NCBI GenBank assembly: GCA_000004985.1
Contig: GG738854.1
Length of the DNA stretch: 64,000 nt
Direction: 5' to 3' (one strand)
DNA from: Naegleria gruberi
Taxonomy: Eukaryota
The position numbers and the translations under genes are program-made. Position 1 is the stretch's first letter. Every line of letters begins with the position of its first letter. Of the stretch, positions 2,874-31,749 are shown in pieces. A model generated the notes under the pieces. The model was not told the DNA's origin. It ran no database searches and saw nothing but the letters and a program-made list of their open reading frames with translations.

Positions 2874-2945
2874 AGCAAATTGGCGCAGCGGAAGCGCGAT
2901 GGGCTCATAACCCATAGGTCCTAGGATCGAAACCTAGATTTGCTA
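2874..2945 (+). tRNA. Initiator tRNA-Met (anticodon CAU)
   Basis: A 72-nt cloverleaf folded by hand. Acceptor AGCAAAT/ATTTGCT with A1:U72. D-arm GCGC-AGCGGAA-GCGC. Anticodon stem ATGGG/CCCAT with three G-C pairs. Loop CTCATAA. T-arm CTAGG-ATCGAAA-CCTAG with A54 and A60. Near-identical to eukaryotic cytoplasmic initiator tRNA. Confidence 0.9.
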
Positions 2946-2949
2946 CTCC

Positions 2950-8937: not shown

Positions 8938-11900
8938 GTGAAAACTGTAACCTCCAACAAGAGAGGTCTCATGAAGAGAACAGCAACATTTCACAATAAT
9001 AATTCATCACCAACCACAACTACACCAAATACTCTCGATTCATCAACCACTCCAACAACTCCTTCCAATGATAGTCAATCAGGAAGGGAATCCAGTGGTT
9101 CTAAAATTGTGAAGAGAGTTGTAAAGAGACAAATTACAAATAATTCAACAACCACAAATAATAATCCATCCAATTCCACTTCATTATTATCATCATCACT
9201 CCAACAAGGATCATCCAGTACCATCCCAATAGGTGGTAGTGTAAACTCCAATCATCATCATGATAATAGTACTTCCTCTTCACCTCCTTCTGCCATCTCA
9301 AGATCATGGCATCACTCGAGGAAGACTAAACTTTCATCATCATCCAATATTGTTGGTAGTGTTGGTAATAATGGTGAATTTTCTCCTTCCTCTCCCACCA
9401 TTTCATCCTCCTTCAATAATAATTCCTTCTCTCCCAATTATAATAACAATAATTCACCATCGTCATCACTTCCTCACTCTAATTCCTTCCAATCCAAACT
9501 CTCCTTTAAAAAATCGAATACAATTAAAAATAAGGCTTCTCCAACAAATGGTGTAGATCAACAACAATCATCATCAACCTCGATAGGTGGTGGGAATGGA
9601 AGGATTACTTCACCTGGTTTTTATAGAGAAGGTGATTTGGATGAGGGAGATGTATTGTTTGCTAGAAAGACTGAAGGATCTGAACGTTCTTCCAATGCTC
9701 AAAGTTCTGATACCAATGATGAGGGTACAACAGATGACGATGAAGAAAATGGAGGAAGAAGAGCACAGGACCAAAGTGAGGGAAGTTGGGACCGATCAGC
9801 TCCTTTTAGAGTGCACCAAGATTCTTCTTCGACAAGAAAAAAGACAAATTATCAACCTCCTGCTCTTTTAAATAGGAAAATTATTCCTCCATCCGAACTG
9901 TATGGTGCAAGTCTTGCTGCTTCTATAATGGATAATTCTTCTCTGATGAATGCATCTGTTGGATCAATGGAAGGTAAAATGGTGGAAGAAGCTGTTGAGA
10001 GTGATCCCGAATCATTCTCTTCTGGTGAGGAGTCATCATATTCACATAATAATTTTACAGAAGAGTTGAGTAATTCTCAATTGCAACAGTTGAGTATGAA
10101 ACATTCTCCTTCTTCACCAATATTAGCTTCTTCACCTCGTACTCTTGATATTCCTTTAAATTCTCCTCTTTCTTCTAGTCCAATGCAAAAAATTGCAATG
10201 ACACACAGCAAAAGCTCATCGGATATTAATACTGCACGTTCAAACCAACATACTAAAGGAATGTATTATAGAATGATGACTGGTGGAAATCACACTCAAA
10301 GGAAGAAACAATACAGAAAATTAGTAACCAAAAAGAACATTTTTGGGTTGCCTGTCACTTTTTCAAAGCCAGCACCTGTCACAACAACAGATTATCAAGA
10401 TGAGGAATATGTGAAGGAAATGACAACTACAAAGGATAAGAACAAGAAACCTGTTGTTAATTCTCAACTTAAAAAAATTGATGATTCACAAGATAAGTTA
10501 GAAGATGTCCAGGATAAACTTGCACTTTTCCACAAGATTCAATATGCTCCTGAAGATATGCCTCTTTCTCCTGGTAGATCTTTCCTTGATACTACTCCAA
10601 GAAAGATTGAAAAACCAGAAAAAAAGGATGATAAGAAACAAAAACAAGAAGTACAAACACCAACAACTCCAAAGCCAACAAACGCACCAACAGTCAAGAA
10701 ACATTTTTACAAAGTTAATACTGGAACATGTACATCAATTCCATCTACTGTTCCTCTTAATACTGATAATATTGATAAGAAACAATTTGAACTTGTTTAC
10801 TGGTCCACATACAAGGACTTGGCAGAGGATGAATATCTTATTGAAAAATTCTTTGTTTCTAATTTTAGTGCTATGGATTTATTATATAAATTATTTTATA
10901 ATAATCCAGATGATACAAACAGAAAGAGAAAATTCAAAGAATTATACAATGGTCATCTCATCACAGAACAAATGGAACAATTAAGAGATATTTTCAAACA
11001 AGTTTCTAAAATCAGAATGTGTACACTTGTGAAGAAGAGGGATGAAAGACTTGAGAATAACCAAAAACTTCATGAGGAAAAAATTATGCAAGACTATGAT
11101 TCATCTTCCTCAGATGATGACGTAGACTTGGTTATTAACGAAAAAGGAGAAATTGATAATGTATTCAGTATGAAGAATTTGATGAATAACTTTGACCAAA
11201 ATATTTTGGCAGAAATCAACAAAACTTCTAAAACATCTAGAAACCAAAGAAATATTACTATCAATTCTGAAACATTAACTTCCGAAATTTCTAAATCATC
11301 CCATCTCACTCTAAAAGATTTAGAAAACGAAGAAAGATTTAACATTTCTGCTAAAATTACTGGTGATACCAAAATTGAATTTTATACAATTAGAAATTGG
11401 TTGACTAAGATTTTAGCCTGTTCTATAACAAGAAAAAAGAGAGAAATGTCCACAATTTTACCTATTCAACCAAGAGAAGAACGAGAGGAAAGAATAGAAA
11501 GTTTCTCTGCCTCTCCAGTTACTGCTACCTTGCTGAATATTGCATCTGAAAGAAATGAATGGGCCAATGAAGAAACATACACCTACACCAACACCAATAC
11601 CAATACTAACACTAATACTGACTCTGACTATTCTGATCCTAATCACTTGCAAAGATGGAAGAGAAAGTCAGTTCTTAGAAAGGGTCCGTTGGAGAATAAT
11701 ACACCAAAACTTGAGATGCAACCTACAGAATTGTTGGACTACATGATGGCTCTATCATGCAGTGCTTCAACTTTATTTGACACATTAGACGAATGGGAGG
11801 TAAGAATTCACGCCTTGTTTGCTTTTTTGGAAACTCTGACTTTGCAAACACCTCACCAAATTAATTGTATTCTAGTATTCTTAGGAGATTTAATCCTCTA

Positions 11901-12993
11901 CAATCAAAGCCTAATGAGCTCAGAATTTATTCATGAGTGTTTGATACCTTATTTAGGCACTATCTTGAAAAAACCAGAAAGTATACCTTTTGTAGATCTA
12001 TTTTTGAAGAGAATTACAGAAAGATCACAACTTTTGTACATTAGAGACCAAGCACAAAGAACTATCAATTTAACTTTTGATAACTTTTCTTCCAGTGCTA
12101 ACGAACCAAACTTTTTAGTTATTTCAAGCTTCCAACTTTCTATTCAATTAACATTGATCGAGTTTGATTTATTCAGTATGATGGAACCTTATGAATTTTA
12201 CTCCAGTTATTGGCTATCAAAGAATCGTTTCAAGGTAAAAACACGAGATCCTTCAGCAAACCTTTCTCTCTTTATCAACTTTTACAATACTGTATCATTG
12301 TGGGTTACTGAAACTATCTTGTCCTATTCTGATATCAAAGATAGACACAAAGCCCTTTGTAGATTTATTTCATTGGCTTGGGGATGTTACTCTGTAAGAA
12401 ACTATAATGGATGTTTTGAAATTATCAGTGGTTTATATTCCAATGAAGTTTATAGACTTAGCAAGACATGGTCCATGTTGAGTGAAGAATATTTGAAACG
12501 AGCTCAAACCCTTATTGATCTGACAAGTGTTGCCAACAATTACAGAAACTACAGAGAAGAATTAAAGACAGCAAAGAAACCATGCATTCCAAATATTGCT
12601 GTTCACTTGAAAGATTTAGCAGCAGTTGATGATTCTCAGGAAGATGAAAGAAAATTAACAGAAGAAGAAATGAGACTTTTGGCAGAAAATGATGAATTTT
12701 GCCAACAAGTATTCATCGGAAGAACTCTTGATGAAGATATTGAATACAACTTTAGCAAGAGAAGACTCCAATCAACTTTAATCTGTCAATTATTAAGATA
12801 TCAAAAGACTTCCTATCCATTCAAAGCCAACGATACTCTCAAACATTTCATATGGCGTAATTTACTTCGCATCAATGAAGACATCAGAAGACAAATGGAA
12901 GATAAAAAGATTACCATTGAAAAGTACATCCAAGAGAGAAAGAGACAATTCCTAGTCAAATCCAAACAACTCGAACCAAAATCTACAAGATGA
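8938..12993 (+). CDS. Ras guanine-nucleotide exchange factor (Cdc25-type RasGEF), 1351 aa, with a long S/T/N-rich N-terminal low-complexity region
   Basis: RasGEF catalytic-domain motifs are present: LIEFDLFSMMEPYEFY, RFISLAWGCYSVRNYNGCFEIISGL and CIPNIAVHLKDLAAVDD. A RasGEF N-terminal-like region lies upstream. Continuous ORF. Confidence 0.8.
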   Translation: MKTVTSNKRGLMKRTATFHNNNSSPTTTTPNTLDSSTTPTTPSNDSQSGRESSGSKIVKRVVKRQITNNSTTTNNNPSNSTSLLSSSLQQGSSSTIPIGGSVNSNHHHDNSTSSSPPSAISRSWHHSRKTKLSSSSNIVGSVGNNGEFSPSSPTISSSFNNNSFSPNYNNNNSPSSSLPHSNSFQSKLSFKKSNTIKNKASPTNGVDQQQSSSTSIGGGNGRITSPGFYREGDLDEGDVLFARKTEGSERSSNAQSSDTNDEGTTDDDEENGGRRAQDQSEGSWDRSAPFRVHQDSSSTRKKTNYQPPALLNRKIIPPSELYGASLAASIMDNSSLMNASVGSMEGKMVEEAVESDPESFSSGEESSYSHNNFTEELSNSQLQQLSMKHSPSSPILASSPRTLDIPLNSPLSSSPMQKIAMTHSKSSSDINTARSNQHTKGMYYRMMTGGNHTQRKKQYRKLVTKKNIFGLPVTFSKPAPVTTTDYQDEEYVKEMTTTKDKNKKPVVNSQLKKIDDSQDKLEDVQDKLALFHKIQYAPEDMPLSPGRSFLDTTPRKIEKPEKKDDKKQKQEVQTPTTPKPTNAPTVKKHFYKVNTGTCTSIPSTVPLNTDNIDKKQFELVYWSTYKDLAEDEYLIEKFFVSNFSAMDLLYKLFYNNPDDTNRKRKFKELYNGHLITEQMEQLRDIFKQVSKIRMCTLVKKRDERLENNQKLHEEKIMQDYDSSSSDDDVDLVINEKGEIDNVFSMKNLMNNFDQNILAEINKTSKTSRNQRNITINSETLTSEISKSSHLTLKDLENEERFNISAKITGDTKIEFYTIRNWLTKILACSITRKKREMSTILPIQPREEREERIESFSASPVTATLLNIASERNEWANEETYTYTNTNTNTNTNTDSDYSDPNHLQRWKRKSVLRKGPLENNTPKLEMQPTELLDYMMALSCSASTLFDTLDEWEVRIHALFAFLETLTLQTPHQINCILVFLGDLILYNQSLMSSEFIHECLIPYLGTILKKPESIPFVDLFLKRITERSQLLYIRDQAQRTINLTFDNFSSSANEPNFLVISSFQLSIQLTLIEFDLFSMMEPYEFYSSYWLSKNRFKVKTRDPSANLSLFINFYNTVSLWVTETILSYSDIKDRHKALCRFISLAWGCYSVRNYNGCFEIISGLYSNEVYRLSKTWSMLSEEYLKRAQTLIDLTSVANNYRNYREELKTAKKPCIPNIAVHLKDLAAVDDSQEDERKLTEEEMRLLAENDEFCQQVFIGRTLDEDIEYNFSKRRLQSTLICQLLRYQKTSYPFKANDTLKHFIWRNLLRINEDIRRQMEDKKITIEKYIQERKRQFLVKSKQLEPKSTR
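11583..11625 (+). repeat. Coding microsatellite (ACN-AAY)n encoding TNTNTNTNTN inside the RasGEF gene
   Basis: Imperfect hexanucleotide repeat accaacaccaataccaatactaacactaatact. Confidence 0.7.
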
Positions 12994-14033: not shown

Positions 14034-15179
14034 TTAACAAATCAACGTTGCCTTATACACATTCTGAACTTCTGCAGCATTCAATGCAGAATTAAAGTAC
14101 AAAATGTTAGCCATGGAACCTGCCCAGTAATAATTGCTTGCACATGCTCCACCATAACATCCAAACACTAATCTGTTAGTTGGTGAACCCGCTGCCCCAG
14201 CAAAGGTCTTTTGCAATGCTCCATCGACATACAAGTCAACTGTTGATGTCTTGAAAACCAAAGCAATATGATGCCAAACATCTGATGTGAAAATTGCATC
14301 ACTAGTTCCCAATTTAGTGTTACCATATGCATACAAACTGAAGGCTTGAGCACTAAACTCAATATATGGACCTCCCGTTCCCACAGACCAAGCAATACCA
14401 GTATTAGCATTATTCTTCTTCATCCATAAAGCCAAAGTTTGACTAGGGCCAAAGGCAATGTTGGTAGTAGAAGATAATCCTGTATTCACTCCATTAAAGA
14501 CAACACTCTTTGGAGCACCATTTGGAACATCAGTGGATGAATATGAGATAGTTCCGTAAGCTGTCAAATCTAAACCAAAGTCATCTTGACCATTAGAATT
14601 GACCAATTGATACTTGTGAATAAGAGTTGGGAGACTGGTACAAGTGGTATTCTGACAATAGGAACCATAATAAGGAGATGTACAATTACAAGTATTAGGT
14701 GAAATACAAGAACCTCTTCCAGAACAAACGCTCGACTTGTTTGTAGAGGAAATTCCAAAACATGTTGGAACGTTACAAGTTGGAAAGTTTGTGTAACCAT
14801 CTGCACACGAATCACAATCCATTCCAACAGTGGTAGCACATCTTGCATCGATAGCAGAAATTTCCAAATCCAAGGAGGAAATGGCTGTCTTTAACTTGTC
14901 AAGTTGTTTAACACGAGTATTGAGAATGATAGTTGTACTATTAGTGAGAGTACTATTAAGCAAGGCAATACCCTTCGATAACTTTTCATAACTCGACATG
15001 AGGTTTCCCCTTTCAGTTTTCAAATCTGCAAGGAATTTTCTCACTCCACAATCACTGTTATTAGTACATACTGCAGTGCATTGTATCATGAAGGTTCCTA
15101 ACAGCCAAGCACAAAATGAAAGCAGCGCAATAGAGTAGTAAATACTGTTCGATTGAGCACGGTGATGTTTGTTAAACAT
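14034..15179 (-). CDS. Signal-anchored or secreted protein with a cysteine-rich EGF-like region and a C-terminal concanavalin-A-like (laminin G / pentraxin-like) lectin domain
   Basis: N-terminal hydrophobic anchor. A C-rich stretch includes CDSCADGYTNFPTCNVPTC and CSGRGSCISPNTCNCTSPYYGSYCQ. The block DVWHHIALVF..LYVDG is typical of ConA-like/LamG folds. Confidence 0.55.
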   Translation of the reverse strand: MFNKHHRAQSNSIYYSIALLSFCAWLLGTFMIQCTAVCTNNSDCGVRKFLADLKTERGNLMSSYEKLSKGIALLNSTLTNSTTIILNTRVKQLDKLKTAISSLDLEISAIDARCATTVGMDCDSCADGYTNFPTCNVPTCFGISSTNKSSVCSGRGSCISPNTCNCTSPYYGSYCQNTTCTSLPTLIHKYQLVNSNGQDDFGLDLTAYGTISYSSTDVPNGAPKSVVFNGVNTGLSSTTNIAFGPSQTLALWMKKNNANTGIAWSVGTGGPYIEFSAQAFSLYAYGNTKLGTSDAIFTSDVWHHIALVFKTSTVDLYVDGALQKTFAGAAGSPTNRLVFGCYGGACASNYYWAGSMANILYFNSALNAAEVQNVYKATLIC

Positions 15180-15619: not shown

Positions 15620-16889
15620 TTGATGAATAACCGATCATATGTGAATGGCAGTTTGAGCATTTTCATCAAATATTTTGAAAAAATCAAAAAAATATTTAAA
15701 AAATTGTTTTTTAAAAAAATGCATCTTCCTCCGAGTAGCACTTACATCATTGGTGCTAATTATCCATTTGCACCAGCCTTTAATTATTACTCTCTGAGTG
15801 ATAACGGAGGAGCTTTTAATAGCAATAATATTACTAATAATACAGATTGTTTTCCTGTTAAAGATGGATATCATTATATTCCGTGGATGTTGAACGCTTT
15901 GGGAGAATGTATTAGAACACCAACAGAACAAGCAAGTTTCTGGATTGGTTTGAGTAGTATTGGTTTTTGGTTATTTGCAAATTTACCACAAATTATTGAA
16001 AATTATAGAAAATCTAATGCCGACAGTTTGGCTCCAGCATTCTTGTTCCAATGGATTTTGGGAGATTCTCTCAATTTAATTGGTTCAATTCTTGCTAATC
16101 AATTACCAACTCAAATTGCTACTGCTGTTTATTACGTTTGCATGGATGTAATTTTAATTGCTCAATTTATTTATTACACAATTAAGAATAGGAGGAAGAA
16201 GCAAAGAGAAGAATTGACAGGAATTAATGAATCAGACCATTTGATTCAAGATGACTCAAAACAAAAATCATACGGAAAGATTATGGCTTTCTCTGCCTTC
16301 TTCTTAACAGCTGGTTTTTATTTAATGCAATCTCAAATGTCATCAGAGGGTGTTATGAATTCTTCATTCAGTACTGGTAGAAAATTATTATCTGAAAGCC
16401 AACAAGATATTGAAGATGGTAAATATTGGCCTATCTATGGTGTTGATATTGCTGGTTACGTCATTGGTTCATTGAGTACTTGTTTGTATTTAGGTTCTAG
16501 AATTCCACAAATTATTAAGAATGTAAGTTTTATTTAACACTAGTTCACTAACTTGTGGGAAATAGTTCCAGAGAAGATCTACCGAAGGTTTATCACCAAT
16601 TTTGTTCATTTGTGCCTTTTTGGGTAACTCCACTTATGCTGGTTCTCTTTTCCTCTATTCTGTTAGTTGGCAATTCATCTTGTCCAGAGTAAGTATTCTT
16701 TATTGAAACACATTTGTTAATTTAAAATTTAATAGCTCCCTTGGATCATTGGTAGTGCTGGTGTTTTGGTTATGGATTTGTTAATTCTTTTGCAATTCCT
16801 TTTCTTCAACGTAATTCTTAAGAGAAAGATTGAAGGAGGAGCAGAAGAAGGTTTTGAAAAATTGGAAGAGGAAGAAACTTCAGAGCAAT
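15620..16889 (+). CDS. PQ-loop repeat transporter (cystinosin / lysosomal cationic amino-acid exporter PQLC2/Ypq-like), three exons
   Basis: Exons span 15620..16522, 16566..16688 and 16736..16889. Introns lie at 16523..16565 (GTAAGT donor, CTAAC branch) and 16689..16735 (GTAAGT donor). Two PQ-loop motifs are present, one near WILGDSLNLIGSILANQLPTQI and one at LSPILFICAFLGNSTYAGSLF. The protein has 7 TM helices. Confidence 0.75.
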
Positions 16890-16967: not shown

Positions 16968-19900
16968 TTAGTTGTTGGTAATCTTAATATTGACTGTTGA
17001 AGATTCAGTTAGCATATCACAACTTCCAGAACCAAGTGGAGTGAGATAGTACTTGCCTGCATCATATAAGGCACTCATGGCAGAAACAACTTCAGAACCA
17101 GAAATCTCACATTCATAAACTTCATTGCTAAGTGCAAGAGTTGGAAGGGAGGTAGCATACTTGGAGGTTCTAATTTGAACATCAATTAAAGTTTCTTGAT
17201 AAGTCATACCATACTTGTAGAGAGAGTGAACTCCAGAATCAGTGGTGTGATAATAGAGACTCTTAATCTTGTTAGTATCAGCAGAATTGAGGTCACAAGC
17301 AGTAATGGTAGAATTATCACCAGAGAGAGAAAGCTTGAAGAGACCTTGTTCCAATTTTTCATTCAAAGAAACCTTCAAAGTTAAAGTAGTGTAATTGTAA
17401 TTATCATCAAAGGTATTTACAACATTGAAAATATCCAATTGCTTCAAGTGGAGATGGTATGAAGTGTACTTGCTTGAAGTAGTACCGCTCCACATAACAA
17501 ATTCACATTTGTAAGTTGAGCATGATTCTCTGTGGAAAGCAATTGATGAATCCATACCATAATAACTCTTGTAAGTGGACAAGACTGAACGAACACTGAT
17601 ACCATCGAATGATTGCATTGTGATTGATGAAAGTGAGTTGGCAAGATCAAAGGTGACAGATTTACCAGCAACACCATCAATTGACAAAGCAGTAGTAACA
17701 TCGGTGCTTTGAGCTGTAATGGCAGCACCTCCAATCTTTGTGTTTTGAGCGTATTTGATCTTTCTTGGAGTAGTTGAAGTGAAACCACTTGAAGCAATGG
17801 CAATAATGATAACAAGAGCCAAAGCAAGACCATTAACAATCAAAACCTTACCAAAGTTAGCAGCACGATGCATTGATGGCATGTATGAGATAGTCATTAA
17901 GAAAATAATCAAACCAATTGCAGAACCAATCATGGCACCACTAACTGGATAATTAGCACGTGACATTAATGGAATAAGCATGTGTGAGAATCTATCAAGA
18001 ATATCAATTGTGACAGTCAATGGTGGCCAACTGGCAATAGCCATGAAAATGAACCAATACAATTGATGGTAGTGAAGGGCATGGAAGAAATCTTTCCATG
18101 TGAATGATGAAAGTTGTGAAGCAATTTCATGTCTCAAATTTCTCTTCTTAGCCAACTTGTTAAGATAAGAGCTGTCATCCTTTGACAATTCGTCTTCCTT
18201 CTTCTTTCTTCTAAGTTCCAAGAACTTCTTTCTCTTATTAACATCATCACCAGCTTCAGTCAATTCTTCAGTCATGGTAGCACCCATAGCTTCTAATGCC
18301 TTAGCACGAGTCTTATTTCTTACAATCAAATAGGTCCACATAATAACACGATCCAAAACCAATAAAATGATGAGCATACCACTCAAACAGAAAGACCAGA
18401 AATAGACAATGTAGAATGACTTCAATTGAGTACACAATGAAGCAGCTGTCAATAAACCCCAGAAGAATGTAAGAGCAAGATATCTTTCCTTATCAATAGC
18501 ATAAACCAAAGTTTGAGCAGCAGTATTTTCACCAGCCTTCAATTCACTCTTATCCTTCATTGAAACTCTGTACATTTTGAAACAACCACAACCTGAAATG
18601 ACAGCATTACCAATGACGTGAACACCGTATTGAGCTAAAAACATACCCAACAAGGTTGGTAAAGCAAATAAAAAGATAGCCAACACTGGATCTCTATACC
18701 ATGGCATGTGTTGAATACCATCCACTATGGCACCCAGAACTGCCGCAAATAAAATACCAAAACCAAGAGACAATACATAACCACCCAAATAGAGAACCAA
18801 ATATAATAAACGAGCTTGCAAACCAGTAGTACTCTTCTTAAATAATTGATAAACAGATGAAGTATCATGATAACGAAGTGAAATCATGTGATCAATGATA
18901 ACCAAAACAATAGGTAAAACCAAATCAACAACTACAATGATACCTTGAATAGCTTGACTCCATCCAAAACTCAAATTAATTGTAAAACCACCCAAAATAT
19001 CAAAATAAACAATATCAGCATCATAATTAGCTTCATATTCAGTATTGGATTCTTCCATAATCTTTTCATTTCTGGTAACTGAAAGAATTTGAGCCAAAAC
19101 ATTGTCACCCAAATGTTGTAAAGTCTTTTCACCAACAACGTCATATGTATCAAACTTGGTTCCATAATAATAACCATCCCAATAGTATGCATAATCCATA
19201 CCCTTCAAATAAAACTTTGGTAAAGTAGTATTACGATAATCTCTACTAGAAAAGACATCATAATCATTAGTATAGGTAGTTAATCTACTTAATTCATAAC
19301 CAATTACTGAAATATATGGATGAACATTACCATATTCACCAATAATTGATTGATCTGTCATTCTAGAAACCATTGCCTTTCCACCACTTCCTACAGAATC
19401 TAAATTAACAAAACGAAGACACTTCTTTGACCATTGATGATTTTTCATAAAGGCAACAGTTGCTTCTGGAGTTGATTGAGTACTTCCACCACCAAAGAAG
19501 AAAACAACTGGATAAGTAGGTCCAGTAGTTGTGTCCTGACTAATCAAATTGTAAATCAATTCTAACATGGTTGCAACTCCAGAGGCAGCACTTGATGCAC
19601 CAGCACTAAATTCCACTGAATCATAATGTGAGGCAACAAGGAATGAATGCATATCATCAACATTTTGTGTTGTTGTTTTAGGAGTGACACGAACAAGGAC
19701 ATTACTAAATTGGTGATAATCTTGTTTTTGAACTTCTAAACCATAACTTCCAGTTGTTTTCTATTTTTTCAAATTCAAATTCAAAATCATCATCATTATA
19801 TGATTTGCAACAATATTTTTGTATTATTAGTATTAACAGTTAATAATATTTTGTAAACAATGTTGTATTAACATTTTACAATTATTACAACAACAATAAC

Positions 19901-20627: not shown

Positions 20628-21689
20628 TTAAATCTTGAAAATGAATGTTTCAAACAGTGGTCTAAATGCATCCAATTCCTTAATATCTGCAGTGTTATCA
20701 TATGATGCTGAATTAATTTTACCAATATCAAGATATTTCAATGAAAGTGAAATACTCTTATTTAGTATGAGAGATTTACAACTTTCCAAATCTGATGATG
20801 CTCTTATGATTAATTTTTCGAGTTGGAGTGTACATTTGATATTGGAAACAGAATTCAAAATTTTTGGTAGTTCAATTTTCAAATATTTCAGATTTGACCA
20901 AACTGGATTATTGAGAATGATTGAAAATCCTTCATCCCAATTTTTCAAAATTGAATTAAGAAATGGAGCAATGACAAGCTTTTTCAATTTGGAGAATAGT
21001 TGATTATTGCACATTAATTGAATATCTTCCAATGTTACTAATTCCCATTTCAAAATTAATGCGGTTAAATTGATTAAACAATTAGTTCCAGAGCTAACGC
21101 TACCAAAATTGGTAAAACTATTACTTTGCAAATTCAGAGTTTTGAGATTTCTCAAAACTTTACTATTGAAAATATCCGAAAGTCCTCTATTTGTAAACTT
21201 GTGATTGATAATTGTCAAATTTTCCAACTTGGCAAATATTTCACAATTAGCTATTAATCCAATCTCATTTACGAGTCTGTTTGCTGGATCAGTAAAGTCA
21301 CCATCAAATAATTCCTCCATTGATTCCTGATATTCCAAATATAGAGTCTTTAAATTTCTCAAATGAGGATTTTCAACGAATCTTCTAAAACTTTCCACAA
21401 CAGTCAACTTGTTATCGAATATTTCCAAGTCAGAAACATGCTCCATCAAAATGTGATCGGTAATTTTAAATAAATTATCGTGAACATCACTAAAGTATTG
21501 TAGGTTGATTGACCGAAAGTGTTGACTTGCTGCTAACCATGATTTGGAGATTATTCGAAATTTGAGAGCCTCTTTTCCTCCTATCATTTCCATCATGATA
21601 AGACAAATCTCTGGTTGCATTTTTTTAATGTTTAACAAGTTCAGGGAAGTTTCTAATAGAAATTTAGTCCAAGAAATGGTGTTGAGCAA
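20628..21689 (-). CDS. F-box/LRR-repeat protein
   Basis: N-terminal F-box-like segment ICLIMMEMIGGKEALKFRIISKSWLAA. Repeated L-x-x-L-x-L LRR-like units follow (LKTLYLEY, LRNLKTLNLQSN, LKKLVIAPF). Confidence 0.5.
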   Translation of the reverse strand: MLNTISWTKFLLETSLNLLNIKKMQPEICLIMMEMIGGKEALKFRIISKSWLAASQHFRSINLQYFSDVHDNLFKITDHILMEHVSDLEIFDNKLTVVESFRRFVENPHLRNLKTLYLEYQESMEELFDGDFTDPANRLVNEIGLIANCEIFAKLENLTIINHKFTNRGLSDIFNSKVLRNLKTLNLQSNSFTNFGSVSSGTNCLINLTALILKWELVTLEDIQLMCNNQLFSKLKKLVIAPFLNSILKNWDEGFSIILNNPVWSNLKYLKIELPKILNSVSNIKCTLQLEKLIIRASSDLESCKSLILNKSISLSLKYLDIGKINSASYDNTADIKELDAFRPLFETFIFKI

Positions 21690-21787
21690 TCAAAGATAAG
21701 AATTGTGCAAACATCTTTTTTTTATAATTTAATACTGGGTTCTCACACGTTTATTTTTCAAAATTGTTTAAAGAATGAATTATTCTC

Positions 21788-22989
21788 TTAATTCTTCTTC
21801 TTGTGTTCCTTTTTCTTTTCAGGAACATACTTGTCAACCTTAATTGGGGAACAAACCTTCTTCTTCTTGGCACAGACAGATTCTTCACCATACTTGACAC
21901 ATTTCTTGTGACCACCAACGAATTGATACTTGGCACAGACCTTATAACCAGGTGACTTCTTGACACACTTCTTCCAGTGCTTCTTCTTGATACATCTTGA
22001 TTTGGTTTGATGATATTGAGTACAGAAGTTGACAGCCTTATAGTTAGCACAGAATTTACGTTCCTTGAACTTTTCACAAACTCTTACTCTCTTCTTGAAA
22101 TCACAGAATTGATTTTGACTCCACTTGGTACAGAAACGAGCCTTCTTTTGAGCAACACAGAACTTTCTATCAATGAATTTAACACATCTCTTAGTGTAAC
22201 CCTTCTTGAGACTGAATTTAACCTTATTGTATCTGACACACTTCTTAGTCTTGGTATATTTGGCACAAATCTTATGACACTTTTGTTGACAGAAAGCATG
22301 ATAATAAGTATCAGTCCATCCCTTGTAATGTTTACCGTTAACCTTCTTCCATCCCTTTTGGCATTTACAGACTTTCTTGTAGGCAGAACAGTAAGCATCG
22401 AGCTTGTATTCAGCACATCTCTTCTTGTAGTGATATCCGACCTTTGGAACATTAATGAATTTGGCACAGACATTTGACTTGTCATACTTGGTACAAACGA
22501 AATGATAAGCATATTCATCACAAGCATTGTTCTTGCCCTTATGTTCACACAAATTCTTCCATGTTGACTTGATACAATACTTTTCAGTCTTGTGCTTGTC
22601 ACAAACTTGCTTGTAACCTTTGAAAAAGTTTACAAAAATTGTAATATTTCAAATAACTTACCATGACCCAAACACAAGTTTCTAGACTTGGAATACTTAT
22701 CACACTTGCTAAATCTCTTATATTTCAAACACTTTCCTTTGCCAACCAACTTCCAATCACAGCACTCTTTCTTAGTTCCAATCCATTCATAATCTGAACA
22801 CTTTCCCTGGACAGTCTTGTAATGAGTACACTTCTTGTAACAGAATTGTTGATGTTCTCCGTAAGTATCAACATTCTTTGCTGGTTCTGGTTTACTTGGA
22901 TTTGCCAAGACCAAAGCAGCGAATGCAAGAGCAATGCACAAGCTTATTATGAATTTTGTTTTCATTTTGTTTTTTTGATATGTTTCCAA
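21788..22989 (-). CDS. Secreted Lys/Cys-rich tandem-repeat protein of about 385 aa, two exons. Effector-like and basic. No known family.
   Basis: Exon 1 spans 22989..22662 and starts with the signal peptide MKTKFIISLCIALAFAALVLA. The intron at 22618..22661 has a GTAAGT donor and AAG acceptor. Exon 2 spans 22617..21788. The mature protein is a periodic array of short C-x-K-[YF]-like units (CTKYDKSNVCAKF, CAKYTKTKKCVRY, CVKFIDRKFCVAQKKARFC...) and ends in a K-rich tail. Confidence 0.6.
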
Positions 22990-23681
22990 TGAATGAAATC
23001 GATGCAGAGTTTAAATACCATTCTGAAACTTTGGAGAAGATACATTGTTGTGGTTTGTTTCATTTCAGAAACTTCAATGTCATTTCCATTTTTGAAAGAT
23101 TGGTCAAATGAGTATTATTGATATTGAGCAATAGTTTTAAAAACAGTATGAAATGAAAATGGCAAATAAGACAACTCCCATGTTTGATATGTAATTTCAG
23201 CTCTGTTATGGGTTCAATCAAAAATTTCCAAACTTGTCCTTTCATATTTCAATCTCGTTTTTAAACGTTGTTGAAGGACTCATTACTGAATTGAATTTTG
23301 GAGGAGCCAATCATCTGTTAATGCATTTCCTTGACGACGTGTGGTAATGGAGTAAAATCCAAATTATTGCTTGTTTTCAAGAATTGTTTCACAATGTCTA
23401 GCATTTTCAGAACAATTTCTTCAACAAAAGGATTTTCTAAAATAAAAACAATCCCTTTCCACAAAATAAGGCACTGCAAATCCAGAATAATTGCCACATT
23501 CTTTCAGTACATAGGGACTCAACTTTGGGTGTTTAGGTCTTAGATATATTCGATGGATTTCTCAAGAAATGTCTAACCTGTACTTGATTAATAATCTTAC
23601 TAGCAAAGTCTTTCCACGCACAAAGGAATGCAACTTGCAAATTAAAATTGTGTCTAGGTAGTTGTTCAGATACAATTCCAA

Positions 23682-25363: not shown

Positions 25364-25510
25364 TTTTTCTCTGCTGGTAAATCCTTATTAAAATGAAAAT
25401 ATGAACAATTGTATAATATGTGTTTTTTTTCTTTTACAACCATAAAGTTCATAAGTTCATCTCTCCATAAAATTAGAGCTCTAATCTTATCAAGTTTTAC
25501 AATAAAAAAA

Positions 25511-26668
25511 ATGTCTCAACTGGATGATGCTGAACCACTCCCTTCCCTTGTGATTGATTTCGGAAGGGGCTATATTAAATATAATTCCACATTTTCAGAT
25601 AATATTCCATCCTCTAATTCTTCCTCTGTTGTTTGTAATGAAACTAGGAATGTTATTGCAATACAAAAAGGAAATCCCGATGAGGAAGTAAAATATATGA
25701 TTGATATTGATTTGAGAAAAGGTCATCGTTATGCAAAGGTTTTTTATCCAATGAAGGAGGGGCATATTAAGGATTGGAATGTGTTTGAAAAGATGATTGA
25801 TTGTTTGTCGAGAGATTCAAGGGTTTATATGGCAGAGACAAATACATTGATGGGCTTTGGACCTCACATGACAGAGAATGAAATGGTTAAGGTGGCCAGT
25901 GTAATGTTTGAGAATTTTAACACTCCAGAATTTGGATTAGTGTTGGATGATTGTATGGCAGCAGTTGGATCTGATACAATTTATGGAACCATGTTGGATT
26001 GTGGATATTCCTCAACAAGAGCAGTTCCAATATTTGATGGAGTTCCTTTGATGGAGTCAATTACTGAACTGAATTTTGGAGGTAACAATTTGATAATGCA
26101 TTTCCTTGATTTATTAAAACAGAGTGCATTATACACTATTAATGCAGATTACATTGGGGATAGAGAATATTTTGGACCATATTGTTTGGAACGAAACGGT
26201 TACGTGCCACTAGATTTTGAAAAGGAGCTGAAGAAAGTAAAAATCAACAAGATCGAGGATTTACCTGATCTCAGATCAGCCCCTCTCAATAATTCTGTAT
26301 TCATATGTACGCAAGCTCTTTTTGATCCTTCACTGGTTGGCTTGGAAGACCCAAGTATGCACAATTTGATTATGCAGTCAATTTCCAAGTGTGATGAGCA
26401 AAAACAAGCAGCTCTATCAAATGTTGTTCCATGTGGTGGTATGTCCAATTTGAAAGGTTTATTAGCAAGATTGGACAAGGAGCTTAAAATTGTTTCAAAA
26501 GATAGCTCCTTCGTTCCTACTCTTTCAGAAATGAAAAACAGAACCAAACTCCCATTTATTGGAGGGTCTATTATTGTAAATTCTAGGACATTATTTGACA
26601 AATTTTCTGTAAAACTTGAAGATTACAATGAATATGGTGAATCCATTGTAAAAAGAAAATTTCTATAA
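25511..26668 (+). CDS. Actin-related protein (divergent ARP)
   Basis: Actin-fold landmarks are present. SLVIDFGRGYIKY is the phosphate-1 loop. EGHIKDWNVFEKMI aligns with actin HGIITNWDDMEKIW. MLDCGYSSTRAVPIFDG aligns with VLDSGDGVSHTVPIYEG. VVPCGGMSNLKGLLARLDKEL and IGGSIIVN are also conserved. Confidence 0.6.
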   Translation: MSQLDDAEPLPSLVIDFGRGYIKYNSTFSDNIPSSNSSSVVCNETRNVIAIQKGNPDEEVKYMIDIDLRKGHRYAKVFYPMKEGHIKDWNVFEKMIDCLSRDSRVYMAETNTLMGFGPHMTENEMVKVASVMFENFNTPEFGLVLDDCMAAVGSDTIYGTMLDCGYSSTRAVPIFDGVPLMESITELNFGGNNLIMHFLDLLKQSALYTINADYIGDREYFGPYCLERNGYVPLDFEKELKKVKINKIEDLPDLRSAPLNNSVFICTQALFDPSLVGLEDPSMHNLIMQSISKCDEQKQAALSNVVPCGGMSNLKGLLARLDKELKIVSKDSSFVPTLSEMKNRTKLPFIGGSIIVNSRTLFDKFSVKLEDYNEYGESIVKRKFL

Positions 26669-29602: not shown

Positions 29603-30997
29603 TTATTTCTTCTTCAAACCTTCAGAGAAAGCATTGACCATGGCAACCTTCTTCTTGTTATGATAAGTTTGTTGAGTTGAACTGCTTTCAGCAGCAGAAG
29701 ATCTTTGTTGCATGTTAGCAGACCAATAGTTATTCATCATCTTACTACCAACATTTGAATAGACAGTTCTGTCAACCATATTATTGTTACAATCATTCAA
29801 ATCCTTAATTAAACCTAAACAGAATTCATCATTGGCACTAACAGAAGCCTTAACCTTTTCAATAGCTTGAGTTAACAAATTTCTTGCTTGTTCTAACTTG
29901 TTTTGATCAGCCAAATTCTTAGCTTGTTCCAAAGCTTCACCAGATTCAACTCTGTTTCTTTGTACATCCAATTGATAATTGGCATCCTTCTTATTTGGTT
30001 CAACAGTTGTATTTCTATGAATGATAATTTCAAATCCAACTGCTTCATTTTCAGTATCTACAATATTGAAATAGAAGAGTGAAACCTTTGCAAGTTCTTG
30101 ATCAAGGAGTGGACCATTGAGAGCAGGAACTGATAACACAAAGACAACATCCTTCTTTTCCTCGGAATAAATATCACCAACATTAACCTCGCATCCTAAA
30201 CCATTTGGTAAATCTTCTTTTCTATAAGTTGTGAAAACCTTCTTCAATTTAACATTAGCATTTGGTTCAATTTTAACTTTGATATTTTGACCAACAACTG
30301 AAATCAAACCACCAATAACGTTACCAAATGCCTTTGGAATGTCATCAGTTGTTTGAAGGAAGTAATATAAACCATTACCAGCTTGAGAAATTGAAGTTAA
30401 CATATTAGCATCTGTATCAGTACCAAATCCAAATGTGAAAACTGTCAGGTTAGTTCTAATTTCTTCATGAATCATTGTTGTCATCTTTTTAACAATTTCA
30501 TTAGTATTTGTAATACCTTCATTAGCTAAACCATCAGTAAATAATAGAAGAGAAGTAACTTCATTGGCATTTGTTCTTTGACCAATAAGTCTCAAACCTT
30601 CAAATAAAGCACCAGATAAATTTGTACAACTTCCTGCTCTGATATTGGAAACAACTTGTTTGGCCTTTGATCTACCACTTTCGTTCATATTAGTAAATTG
30701 AAGGCTAGTTGAAATATTACTATCAAATTCAACGAGAGCAATTCTATCGGTTGGCTTTAATTGATCAAACATGAATGCTAATGTTGATTTGACCATTTCA
30801 ATTTTACTGCCTGCCATTGATCCTGATTTGTCAACTACACAAATAAGATCAATTCCCTTTCTTTCTTTTCTTTCATCGGCTTCAAATTCTGGAGCCTGTA
30901 ACGTTGCCATACAATATAAATCTGTTTCCTTTTGATATGGTAAATTGATGTATTCACAATTACCAGTAAAGACAATTTTAGTATTGGAAGAAGACAT
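29603..30997 (-). CDS. von Willebrand factor A (vWA) domain protein
   Basis: MIDAS motif DKSGSM within LICVVDKSGSMAGSKIEMVKSTL. A vWA fold and a coiled C-terminal region follow. Confidence 0.7.
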   Translation of the reverse strand: MSSSNTKIVFTGNCEYINLPYQKETDLYCMATLQAPEFEADERKERKGIDLICVVDKSGSMAGSKIEMVKSTLAFMFDQLKPTDRIALVEFDSNISTSLQFTNMNESGRSKAKQVVSNIRAGSCTNLSGALFEGLRLIGQRTNANEVTSLLLFTDGLANEGITNTNEIVKKMTTMIHEEIRTNLTVFTFGFGTDTDANMLTSISQAGNGLYYFLQTTDDIPKAFGNVIGGLISVVGQNIKVKIEPNANVKLKKVFTTYRKEDLPNGLGCEVNVGDIYSEEKKDVVFVLSVPALNGPLLDQELAKVSLFYFNIVDTENEAVGFEIIIHRNTTVEPNKKDANYQLDVQRNRVESGEALEQAKNLADQNKLEQARNLLTQAIEKVKASVSANDEFCLGLIKDLNDCNNNMVDRTVYSNVGSKMMNNYWSANMQQRSSAAESSSTQQTYHNKKKVAMVNAFSEGLKKK

Positions 30998-31668: not shown

Positions 31669-31741
31669 GGGGATGTAGCTCACATGGTAGAGCGCTTCTT
31701 TAGCATGGAAGAGGTACGGGGATCGATACCCCGCATCTCCA
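31669..31741 (+). tRNA. tRNA-Ala (anticodon AGC)
   Basis: A 73-nt cloverleaf. Acceptor GGGGATG/CATCTCC carries the G3:U70 alanine identity pair. The anticodon loop is TTAGCAT. T-arm is CGGGG-ATCGATA-CCCCG. The 8-nt D-loop and the A at position 54 are unusual. Confidence 0.8.
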
Positions 31742-31749
31742 CTCTATAC

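Follow-up and report, generated by a model that had tools for sequence, protein, structure and literature searches.

A putatively secreted, cysteine-periodic protein of Naegleria gruberi and its predicted disulfide-laddered hairpin

Within a 64,000-nucleotide stretch of Naegleria gruberi contig GG738854.1 (the whole of which is called the window below), a two-exon gene on the minus strand encodes a lysine- and cysteine-rich product in which most cysteines are nine residues apart. The locus raises the question of whether such a product is a tandem-repeat protein, as its regular spacing implies at first sight, or a protein with a different architecture, and what role it may have. The best explanation of the whole is a secreted rod, held together by a ladder of disulfides, with an extracellular structural role (rough probability 0.45).

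Gene and product

The coding sequence (CDS) starts at the ATG at positions 22965-22963. The sequence-only reading of this DNA had placed a gene of two exons and a 44-nt intron at 21788-22989. The intron is the same as the one derived here and the place is right, but the strand and the start are not: position 22989 is the TTG of a mechanical open reading frame (ORF), and the true ATG is on the minus strand. Along its whole length, the spliced product has 100% identity to N. gruberi XP_002680355.1 (NAEGRDRAFT_64508; D2V6N9), annotated as "predicted protein", and the derived splice is therefore that of the public gene model. The intron splits the codon of Gly102 between bases 1 and 2, immediately ahead of Tyr103, and the unspliced frame reaches a stop 10 codons into the intron. 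For comparison, homologous loci are available on Naegleria-like contigs from GCA_050043615.1 (L001) and from an ENA metagenome (L002). The position of the intron and its GT..AG boundaries are conserved in both, at lengths of 41 and 53 nt, respectively, which like 44 are all 2 modulo 3. Identity to the target gene is 78% in the intron, 83% in exon 1, and 90% in exon 2 for L001, and 59%, 77%, and 79% for L002. A paralogue (L003) has no intron here and reads LCLGHGYKQFC across the junction in a continuous 396-codon ORF, and the N. fowleri homologue, with introns elsewhere, is likewise uninterrupted as LCLGHGYKQVC.

Across the whole CDS, 74 codons differ synonymously and 37 non-synonymously between the target and L001, and 94 of the 134 base differences fall at third positions; these mostly synonymous differences indicate purifying selection. 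The alignment of homologues has 64 invariant columns, which include 29 of the 35 cysteines of the mature protein. The codon bias of the gene is the strongest among the 29 ORFs of the window (GC content at third codon positions 0.43, compared with 0.17-0.32; TTC usage 94%, AAG usage 81%), which suggests high expression. The M28 peptidase ORF of the window has a similarly high AAG usage (85%).

The locus could also be a low-complexity pseudogene or an annotation artefact that contains no functional gene, given that the biased composition opens several frames and that related loci are mis-called in public databases. However, intact full-length orthologues or paralogues are present in at least three named Naegleria species (N. 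gruberi, N. lovaniensis, and N. fowleri), with a partial match of 183 aa in Willaertia magna. Together with the invariant columns, a 2:1 excess of synonymous over non-synonymous codon changes, the conserved intron, and the strong codon bias, these findings effectively refute that explanation. The sequence-only reading had itself named an unsupported exon join and a degenerate low-complexity pseudogene as grounds on which it would fall. The join is backed comparatively, by the conserved intron and by the read-through in the intronless paralogue, and the gene is under purifying selection.

A word-indexed search of 5.8 billion proteins returned nine relatives, and an exhaustive search of 1.84 billion cluster representatives with a profile hidden Markov model returned 21 matches. 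All named relatives belong to N. gruberi, N. lovaniensis, N. fowleri, or W. magna, and the remainder are environmental sequences. The paralogues that the sequence-only reading had proposed to look for are thus found in N. gruberi (NAEGRDRAFT_48501, 71888, 74241, 66117, 67458, and 76199); the other species contribute C9374_012983 and 009239 (N. lovaniensis) and FDP41_004030 (N. fowleri). The three weakest profile matches (P0030, P0032, and P0033) are unrelated sequences with nine-residue Cys-periodic low-complexity runs of their own. The earlier statement that the protein belongs to no known family also holds: Pfam has no matching family at E<=10, and a sequence search of the PDB gave a single match at chance level (E=0.036).

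The spliced product has 377 aa and is rich in Lys (23.3%), Cys (9.5%, 36 residues), and Tyr (7.4%), with a pI of 9.7; the mature product has roughly 356 residues and a net charge of +71. Its only hydrophobic segment is the N-terminal MKTKFIISLCIALAFAALVLA, where the Kyte-Doolittle average over 19 residues reaches a maximum of 2.35 (residues 3-21), compared with 0.15 or less elsewhere. AlphaFold2 (AF2) places a helix at residues 3-20, and the N-terminus is equivalent in all full-length homologues. The product is probably soluble and secreted, with this segment as its cleavable signal peptide, and the -3/-1 rule predicts cleavage between VLA and NP. The product has no second transmembrane-like stretch and no N-x-S/T sequon, and its C-terminus is hydrophilic. 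A membrane protein or one with a glycosylphosphatidylinositol anchor is rejected on the first and last of these grounds, and an N-glycoprotein on the second. The earlier description as secreted, strongly basic, and rich in Lys and Cys therefore agrees with the N-terminus and the composition, but the "poly-Lys tail" that it included is a Lys-rich C-terminus (PEKKKEHKKKN) and not poly-Lys.

Mirror-symmetric cysteines and a predicted two-arm ribbon

The nine-residue period is evident at the protein level. Compared with 500 shuffles, self-identity is raised at lag 9 (z=4.7) and at its multiples 18 (z=3.3), 27 (z=2.9), and 36 (z=2.8). When the sequence is cut into nine-residue units, Lys occupies position 3 in 10 of 17 and Tyr or Phe position 4 in nine of 17, such that the unit C-x-K-[YF]-x(4-8) given by the sequence-only reading is approximately right in the form C-x-K-[YF]-x4-[FVY]. 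At the DNA level, Tandem Repeats Finder (minimum score 30) detects no tandem array in the CDS, tblastn with the protein finds no second gene copy within the window, and orthologues and paralogues align position by position, column to column. The empty repeat search and this alignment reject a recent tandem-repeat protein that arose by DNA-level duplication. The term "tandem-repeat protein" is thus accurate for the periodicity of the protein, but not for the DNA, which contains no repeat, nor for the order of the cysteines, which is palindromic.

This palindrome becomes apparent when the 35 mature cysteines are listed as two arms. Arm 1 has cysteines at 42, 46, 56, 68, 69, 79, 88, 98, 107, 116, 125, 134, 143, 152, 169, 178, 185, and 187, and arm 2 at 211, 215, 219, 228, 246, 255, 264, 273, 282, 291, 300, 310, 319, 329, 341, 350, and 357. 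Their positions are mirror-symmetric about residue ~199, with an exact partner (i+j=398) for 22 of the 35. When the order of the gaps was permuted 2000 times with the nine-residue period kept, 12.5±2.0 exact partners were found, and no permutation reached the observed number. With a tolerance of ±1, 32 of the 35 have a partner (21.1±2.2 in the permutations, again 0/2000). The irregular gaps are palindromic as well (17 with 18, 10 with 10, and 12 with 12). The symmetry is kept in six orthologues or paralogues, with 0/500 permutations reaching the observed value in each.

Changes across the family are also paired between the arms. A Cys occupies both position 163 and position 237 in P0007, P0015, P0034, P0018, P0035, and P0019, and neither position is Cys in the other clade, in all seven of its sequences where both are present; P0026 has a deletion at 163. 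The P0002/P0004 clade has lost C185/C187 together with C211/C215. For all seven length changes between cysteines of arm 2, the mirrored interval of arm 1 changes in the same direction. The matched intervals (143-152 with 246-255, 169-178 with 219-228, 125-134 with 264-273, and 152-169 with 228-246) correspond to at least four separate events (+8/+15, +3/+3, +2/+2, and +2/+4). When the pairing register is shifted by ±1 to 5 intervals, just zero to three such coincidences occur. These paired changes of cysteines and lengths are therefore not explicable by local disulfides between residues i and i+9.

AF2 predicts a fold with the same symmetry. For the full-length protein (alignment of 10 sequences), the best model is all-beta with a mean predicted local distance difference test score (pLDDT) of 62.6. 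Its strand breaks form mirror pairs around residue 200 (92-95 with 306-309 and 128-135 with 267-274), with a turn at 194-206. For residues 105-293 alone, the best model (mean pLDDT 85.4) has exactly two strands, at 8-93 and 99-185 of the sub-sequence (residues 112-197 and 203-289). The sole turn has five residues (94-98 of the sub-sequence, residues 198-202) and lies on the KHYKGW motif. This motif is nearly invariant in the family and stands beside the invariant residues W191, V194, D204, and Y206. The ladder architecture is thus supported by three independent computational lines, namely the mirror statistics, the co-variation across the arms, and the AF2 prediction.

In the architecture that these lines point to, the chain would turn back at the conserved K-H-Y-K-G-W tip near residue 200, and its N-terminal half would run antiparallel to its C-terminal half in a very long two-stranded beta-ribbon. 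Each Cys(i) would bond with Cys(~398-i), which gives 17 disulfide rungs; because the Cys period is odd, these rungs would alternate between the two faces. The outer rungs would be 42-357, 46-350, 56-341, 68/69-329, 79-319, 88-310, 98-300, 107-291, and 116-282, and the inner ones 125-273, 134-264, 143-255, 152-246, 169-228, 178-219, 185-215, and 187-211. One cysteine, 68 or 69, would be left unpaired; across the family, members have an odd Cys count or extra CC doublets beside rungs. The result would be a stiff, possibly kinked rod. With 86 residues in each arm and about 0.33 nm for each residue, the confidently modelled core would measure about 29 nm, and a straight, fully extended arm from C42 to C187 would bring the length to about 48 nm at most. 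Lys and aromatic side chains would cover both faces, with no hydrophobic core. A comparison of the faces gives 13 versus 24 hydrophobic and 26 versus 20 basic residues, with disulfides on both, which is a weak asymmetry. Although such a ribbon would have no core, ten aromatic residues are invariant (W121, W191, W267, Y172, Y181, Y206, F236, Y242, Y294, and F334), which suggests packing or ligand contacts.

Both chain ends would meet at the open end of the rod, each with a flexible D-x-Y-x-P/Lys tail. The AF2 pLDDT is below 50 for residues 20-40, among which D33, T34, and Y35 are nearly invariant, and for residues 359-377. The target gene has the D-x-Y motif once per end (VDTY at the N-terminus and VDKYVP at the C-terminus). 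Every insertion or tail outside the ladder carries D-x-Y-x-P motifs across the family, and the C-terminal tails of paralogues have two to four tandem copies of VDTYKPPKK or IDSYKP (up to four).

Several observations weigh against the hairpin. One AF2 model of five is confident (pLDDT of 85.4 versus 58.9-37.1 for the segment, and 62.6 versus 49-38 for the full length), the predicted template modelling score (pTM) is 0.27, and the alignments are shallow (8-10 sequences). At register 398, cross-strand pairs other than Cys are no more complementary in charge or hydrophobicity than at other registers, and the mirror signal is weaker in the most divergent members (19/500 permutations for P0019 and 30/500 for P0026). 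The chain may then form independent short C-x8-C loops or another compact fold, which would still be extracellular, and the hairpin would be an artefact of AlphaFold. The four models of low confidence, the pTM, and the lack of a non-Cys signal at register 398 fit this explanation, and the nine-residue period lets shifts of ±9 still align seven Cys pairs. However, local pairing does not explain how a single extra cysteine was gained or lost jointly with another 74 residues away (163 with 237), why all seven length changes of arm 2 have a counterpart in precisely the mirrored interval of arm 1, or why the irregular gaps are palindromic. Separate loops or a compact fold are for these reasons an improbable alternative, and an antiparallel, disulfide-laddered hairpin of two arms in one long beta-ribbon is the likely architecture. 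If so, an apparent tandem repeat can conceal a long-range pairing code, which the co-variation of cysteines and indels alone reveals.

Possible roles of the rod

An extracellular structural role is suggested by the combination of the export signal, the density of disulfides, the elongated shape, the exposed invariant aromatic residues, the charge of +71, the odd number of cysteines, the tails, the codon bias, the restricted taxonomic distribution, and the retention of the scaffold at low charge in distant members. After removal of the signal peptide, the product would be exported by the secretory pathway. The rod may associate side by side, or its Lys and aromatic faces may bind polyanionic or glycan partners, and the spare thiol and the Tyr/Lys tails may lock it in place. 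The odd count of 35 mature cysteines is the sole hint of intermolecular bonding. Among named members, the family is restricted to cyst-forming vahlkampfiid amoebae, and the wall of the resting cyst or another secreted matrix would be the prime candidate location. In the oocyst walls of Apicomplexa, Cys-rich wall proteins (OWPs) are polymerized by disulfides and Tyr-rich proteins are cross-linked by dityrosine (PMC7389338). An abundant structural rod in the cyst wall or another secreted matrix is accordingly a possibility that we put forward tentatively. A more specific version, in which a new protein architecture (a "macro cystine ladder" of about 17 disulfides) also makes up the cyst wall of Naegleria and Willaertia as its proteinaceous building block, with cross-links via the D-x-Y-x-P tails and the spare thiol, appears rather doubtful.

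Other findings make a structural role less certain. Self-assembly of a two-stranded ribbon with a net charge of +71 should be unfavourable if no polyanionic partner is present. No carbohydrate-binding domain is recognizable with Pfam, and the neighbouring genes give no functional hint. The literature searched has no mention of the locus tags or the UniProt identifier of the target, no cyst-wall proteome of Naegleria, and nothing on encystation transcriptomes, the chemistry of the cyst wall, or secreted proteins rich in Cys and Lys.

The main functional rival keeps the same ladder fold and makes the protein an antimicrobial or bacteria-binding polycation. Naegleria is a bacterivore, and a giant cationic, disulfide-braced beta-hairpin may be released into phagosomes or the medium, where it would attach to the anionic envelopes of bacterial prey and damage them. 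The secreted-looking N-terminus, the charge, the pI, and the disulfide-stapled antiparallel hairpin are all as expected of such a protein, and a high codon bias would fit an abundant digestive or defence product equally well. Furthermore, beta-hairpin antimicrobial peptides, which are cationic hairpins cyclized by intramolecular disulfides, are a recognized class (PMC13001179). With 377 aa and 17 rungs, however, the protein is more than 10 times the size of that class, and its faces are not cleanly amphipathic. Purifying selection on sequence and length and the rigid Cys register are unlike the fast evolution of defence peptides, the distant members P0018 and P0019 keep the scaffold at a much lower charge (net +30), and it is not obvious how the Tyr/Pro/Lys tail repeats would contribute to killing. 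Taken together, we consider an antimicrobial role unlikely.

The tails direct attention to adhesion. Mussel fp-1 and plant PRPs have Tyr/Lys/Pro adhesive and wall repeats that may resemble those of the family, and the protein may be a substrate adhesive, the secreted "glue" of a crawling amoeba, whose Lys/Tyr-rich faces and tails would adhere to mineral or organic substrates of negative charge. Lys and Tyr are abundant (23% and 7.4%), Y-K and K-Y neighbours are frequent, and paralogue tails repeat (V/I)D(T/S)YKPP(KK) two to four times. Yet the target gene has the motif just once at each end, DOPA (3,4-dihydroxyphenylalanine) formation is not known from Naegleria, and a rigid rod with 17 disulfides is atypical of known glues; an adhesive is quite improbable. 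The sequence-only reading had called the protein effector-like and framed it in terms of symbiotic tissue. A signal peptide, a Cys-rich composition without a known domain, and one family member in the pathogen N. fowleri would suit a secreted effector in a symbiotic or pathogenic interaction. This framing does not agree with the 100% identity to a protein of N. gruberi, which is a free-living amoeboflagellate of soil and freshwater (PMC12482156), not a symbiont. The other two suggestions of that reading, an antimicrobial and an extracellular-matrix-binding protein, may still apply. The free-living habit of the organism makes the effector explanation very unlikely; in addition, the non-pathogenic N. 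lovaniensis and W. magna have the family in common, the gene is conserved under purifying selection, and the product is large for an effector.

The structural rod thus remains the preferred explanation. If the ladder model is true, it represents an extreme and very simple design, a core-less rod held solely by a palindromic series of disulfides, with no counterpart among solved structures and with relevance to fold evolution, oxidative folding, and biomaterials. The family also provides concrete candidates for extracellular wall or matrix proteins of Naegleria, including FDP41_004030 of the pathogen N. fowleri. The molecular make-up of the Naegleria wall is essentially uncharacterized in the literature searched, and the resistant cysts are relevant to water disinfection.

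Surroundings, relatives, and known systems

The features of the locus and of its surroundings are collected in Table 1. The flanking genes are unrelated and of the housekeeping type. The immediate downstream neighbour, with its leucine-rich-repeat-like pattern, has no Pfam match at E<=0.001. Upstream of the gene, the TATA-like TATTTAAA is a candidate promoter element judging from its sequence, and TATTTAAACTCT is also kept in L001, where identity in the 5' flank around it is just 63%. The AATAAA hexamer downstream of the stop is a possible polyadenylation signal.

Table 1. Parts of the gene and other features of the window (ORF, open reading frame)
Feature	Position	Strand	Description
Exon 1	22662..22965	-	304 nt; start codon, signal peptide, N-terminal tail, first part of arm 1
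Intron	22618..22661	-	44 nt, GTAAGT...AAAG, phase 1, inside arm 1
Exon 2	21788..22617	-	830 nt including stop TAA 21790-21788
Signal peptide (putative)	22903..22965	-	residues 1-21, MKTKFIISLCIALAFAALVLA; predicted cleavage between VLA and NP
N-terminal flexible tail	22843..22902	-	residues 22-41, V-D-T-Y motif, NPSKPEPAKNVDTYGEHQQF
Ladder arm 1	22361..22842	-	residues C42-C187, 18 Cys mostly 9 apart; interrupted by the intron
Hairpin tip	22292..22360	-	residues 188-210; K-H-Y-K-G-W 197-202 nearly invariant
Ladder arm 2	21851..22291	-	residues C211-C357, 17 Cys mirroring arm 1 (i+j about 398)
C-terminal Lys-rich tail	21791..21850	-	residues 358-377, SPIKVDKYVPEKKKEHKKKN; one V-D-K-Y-V-P motif
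TATA-like element (candidate)	23010..23017	-	TATTTAAA; 45-52 nt upstream of ATG; read from sequence
AATAAA hexamer	21750..21755	-	33-38 nt past the stop; seen in sequence
Antisense open frame	22007..22477	+	156 aa; without independent support
tRNA-Met (CAT)	2874-2946	+	
RasGEF	8938-12993	+	
Laminin_G_3+EGF	14034-15179	-	
PQ-loop protein	15620-16537	+	
Peptidase_M28	16968-19652	-	
Immediate downstream neighbour ORF	20628-21689	-	353 aa, leucine-rich-repeat-like pattern LxxLxL...N
Actin-family protein	25409-26668	+	
VWA protein	29603-30997	-	
tRNA-Ala (AGC)	31669-31742	+	

The sequence-only reading had regarded antisense ORFs at 22007..22602 as shadows of the repeat. This is correct for the antisense frame listed in Table 1, which reflects the biased codon composition of the real CDS and does not represent a gene. 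The frame at 22084-22602 is likewise a compositional by-product, but it is an alternative frame on the same strand and not antisense. In public metagenome gene calls, equivalent frames appear as the mis-called "proteins" P0008 and P0009. Both P0008 (L001 61-816) and P0009 (L002 503-1255) are read-through artefacts that consist of exon 1, the intron, and the frame-shifted exon 2 of homologous Naegleria genes, and they arose when prokaryote-style gene calling was applied to eukaryotic contigs.

Several relatives differ from the target in gene structure or domain content. FDP41_004030 of N. fowleri (L004 6001-7343) has two introns at positions other than that of the target gene, and its neighbourhood also differs (bromodomain, RPS24e, ankyrin, and kinesin). 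It lacks C185/187/211/215 and has a CC doublet at 291/292, and by this Cys pattern it groups with the paralogous subfamily of NAEGRDRAFT_74241/71888; no orthologue of the 64508 type was seen in N. fowleri. NAEGRDRAFT_76199 (P0025), on another N. gruberi scaffold, has cytosolic SAM and PB1 domains fused to half a ladder domain and is probably a chimeric gene model. In the environmental P0018 and P0035 (713-742 aa), a region of ~350 aa with another Cys-rich repeat, of the C-P-x-x...C-P-A-G-K-K type, lies N-terminal to the ladder domain. This region has no Pfam match, and for the two homologues as a whole Pfam gives a sub-threshold chromo-shadow match alone. P0030 is a sequence of 2774 aa on a 30-kb ENA metagenome contig, with nine-residue units such as CSSFITSST and CFDYATLAA that match the profile in five stretches (E=9e-10). 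Its periodicity is probably convergent and not homologous, but a C-x8 ladder may have come into use there independently, for a second time.

Among known systems, the antistasin domain occurs in Cys-rich proteins reported from Naegleria and Willaertia (PMC12482156); the target has no match to it, with Pfam empty at E<=10. Nested, mirror-image disulfides that join antiparallel arms are also found in twin CX9C/CX3C (CHCH) proteins and plant alpha-hairpinins. However, these are short and alpha-helical with a Cys spacing of 10 or 4, and CHCH proteins reside in the mitochondrial intermembrane space. An alpha-helical hairpin of the CX9C type is rejected for the Naegleria protein, given that a spacing of nine is incompatible with one helical face, that the prediction is all-beta, and that a putative signal peptide for the endoplasmic reticulum is present. 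Foldseek finds nothing at E<=0.001 for the predicted structure, and the best matches are the long stem hairpins of pore-forming toxins at template modelling scores of 0.19 or less. Such stems, as in lysenin, aerolysin, anthrax PA, and alpha-haemolysin, are amphipathic, have no disulfides, and exist solely within oligomeric barrels.

With regard to the tails, the paralogue repeats are similar in flavour to "PPVYK" of plant PRPs, to extensins, and to "AKPSYPPTYK" of mussel fp-1, in that Tyr is flanked by Lys and Pro within flexible repeats. In contrast, the target gene has one motif per end, and the conserved Asp at -2 is not present in the plant and mussel repeats. The closest parallels to the proposed role come from Apicomplexa, namely the Cys-rich COWP/TgOWP, secreted proteins with regular cysteines that form disulfide polymers, and the Tyr-rich wall proteins, whose cross-linking hardens a resistant wall (PMC7389338). 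The composition of the Naegleria protein joins both traits. No homology to COWP/OWP was found, since the search of 1.84 billion representatives gave just Naegleria, Willaertia, and environmental sequences and the three low-complexity matches. The families have no sequence or Pfam relationship, the lineage here is Heterolobosea, and a mirrored intramolecular ladder is undescribed for COWPs.

The structural principle is closest to that of the beta-hairpin antimicrobial peptides and the theta-defensin "cystine ladder", a group that includes tachyplesin, protegrin, gomesin, and arenicin. These are cationic and secreted and have a two-stranded antiparallel hairpin with disulfides between the arms (class described in PMC13001179), as is predicted here. 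They have one to three rungs in 16-30 residues, whereas the Naegleria protein would have 17 in about 320 residues. It also has no detectable homology to them, is not clearly amphipathic, and has conserved Tyr/Pro/Lys tails. Because the structural principle and the proposed role both have precedents, the protein is not categorically new, and the gene itself is already public as a predicted protein, such that the locus is not new either. The family and its palindromic disulfide-ladder architecture appear to be undescribed so far.

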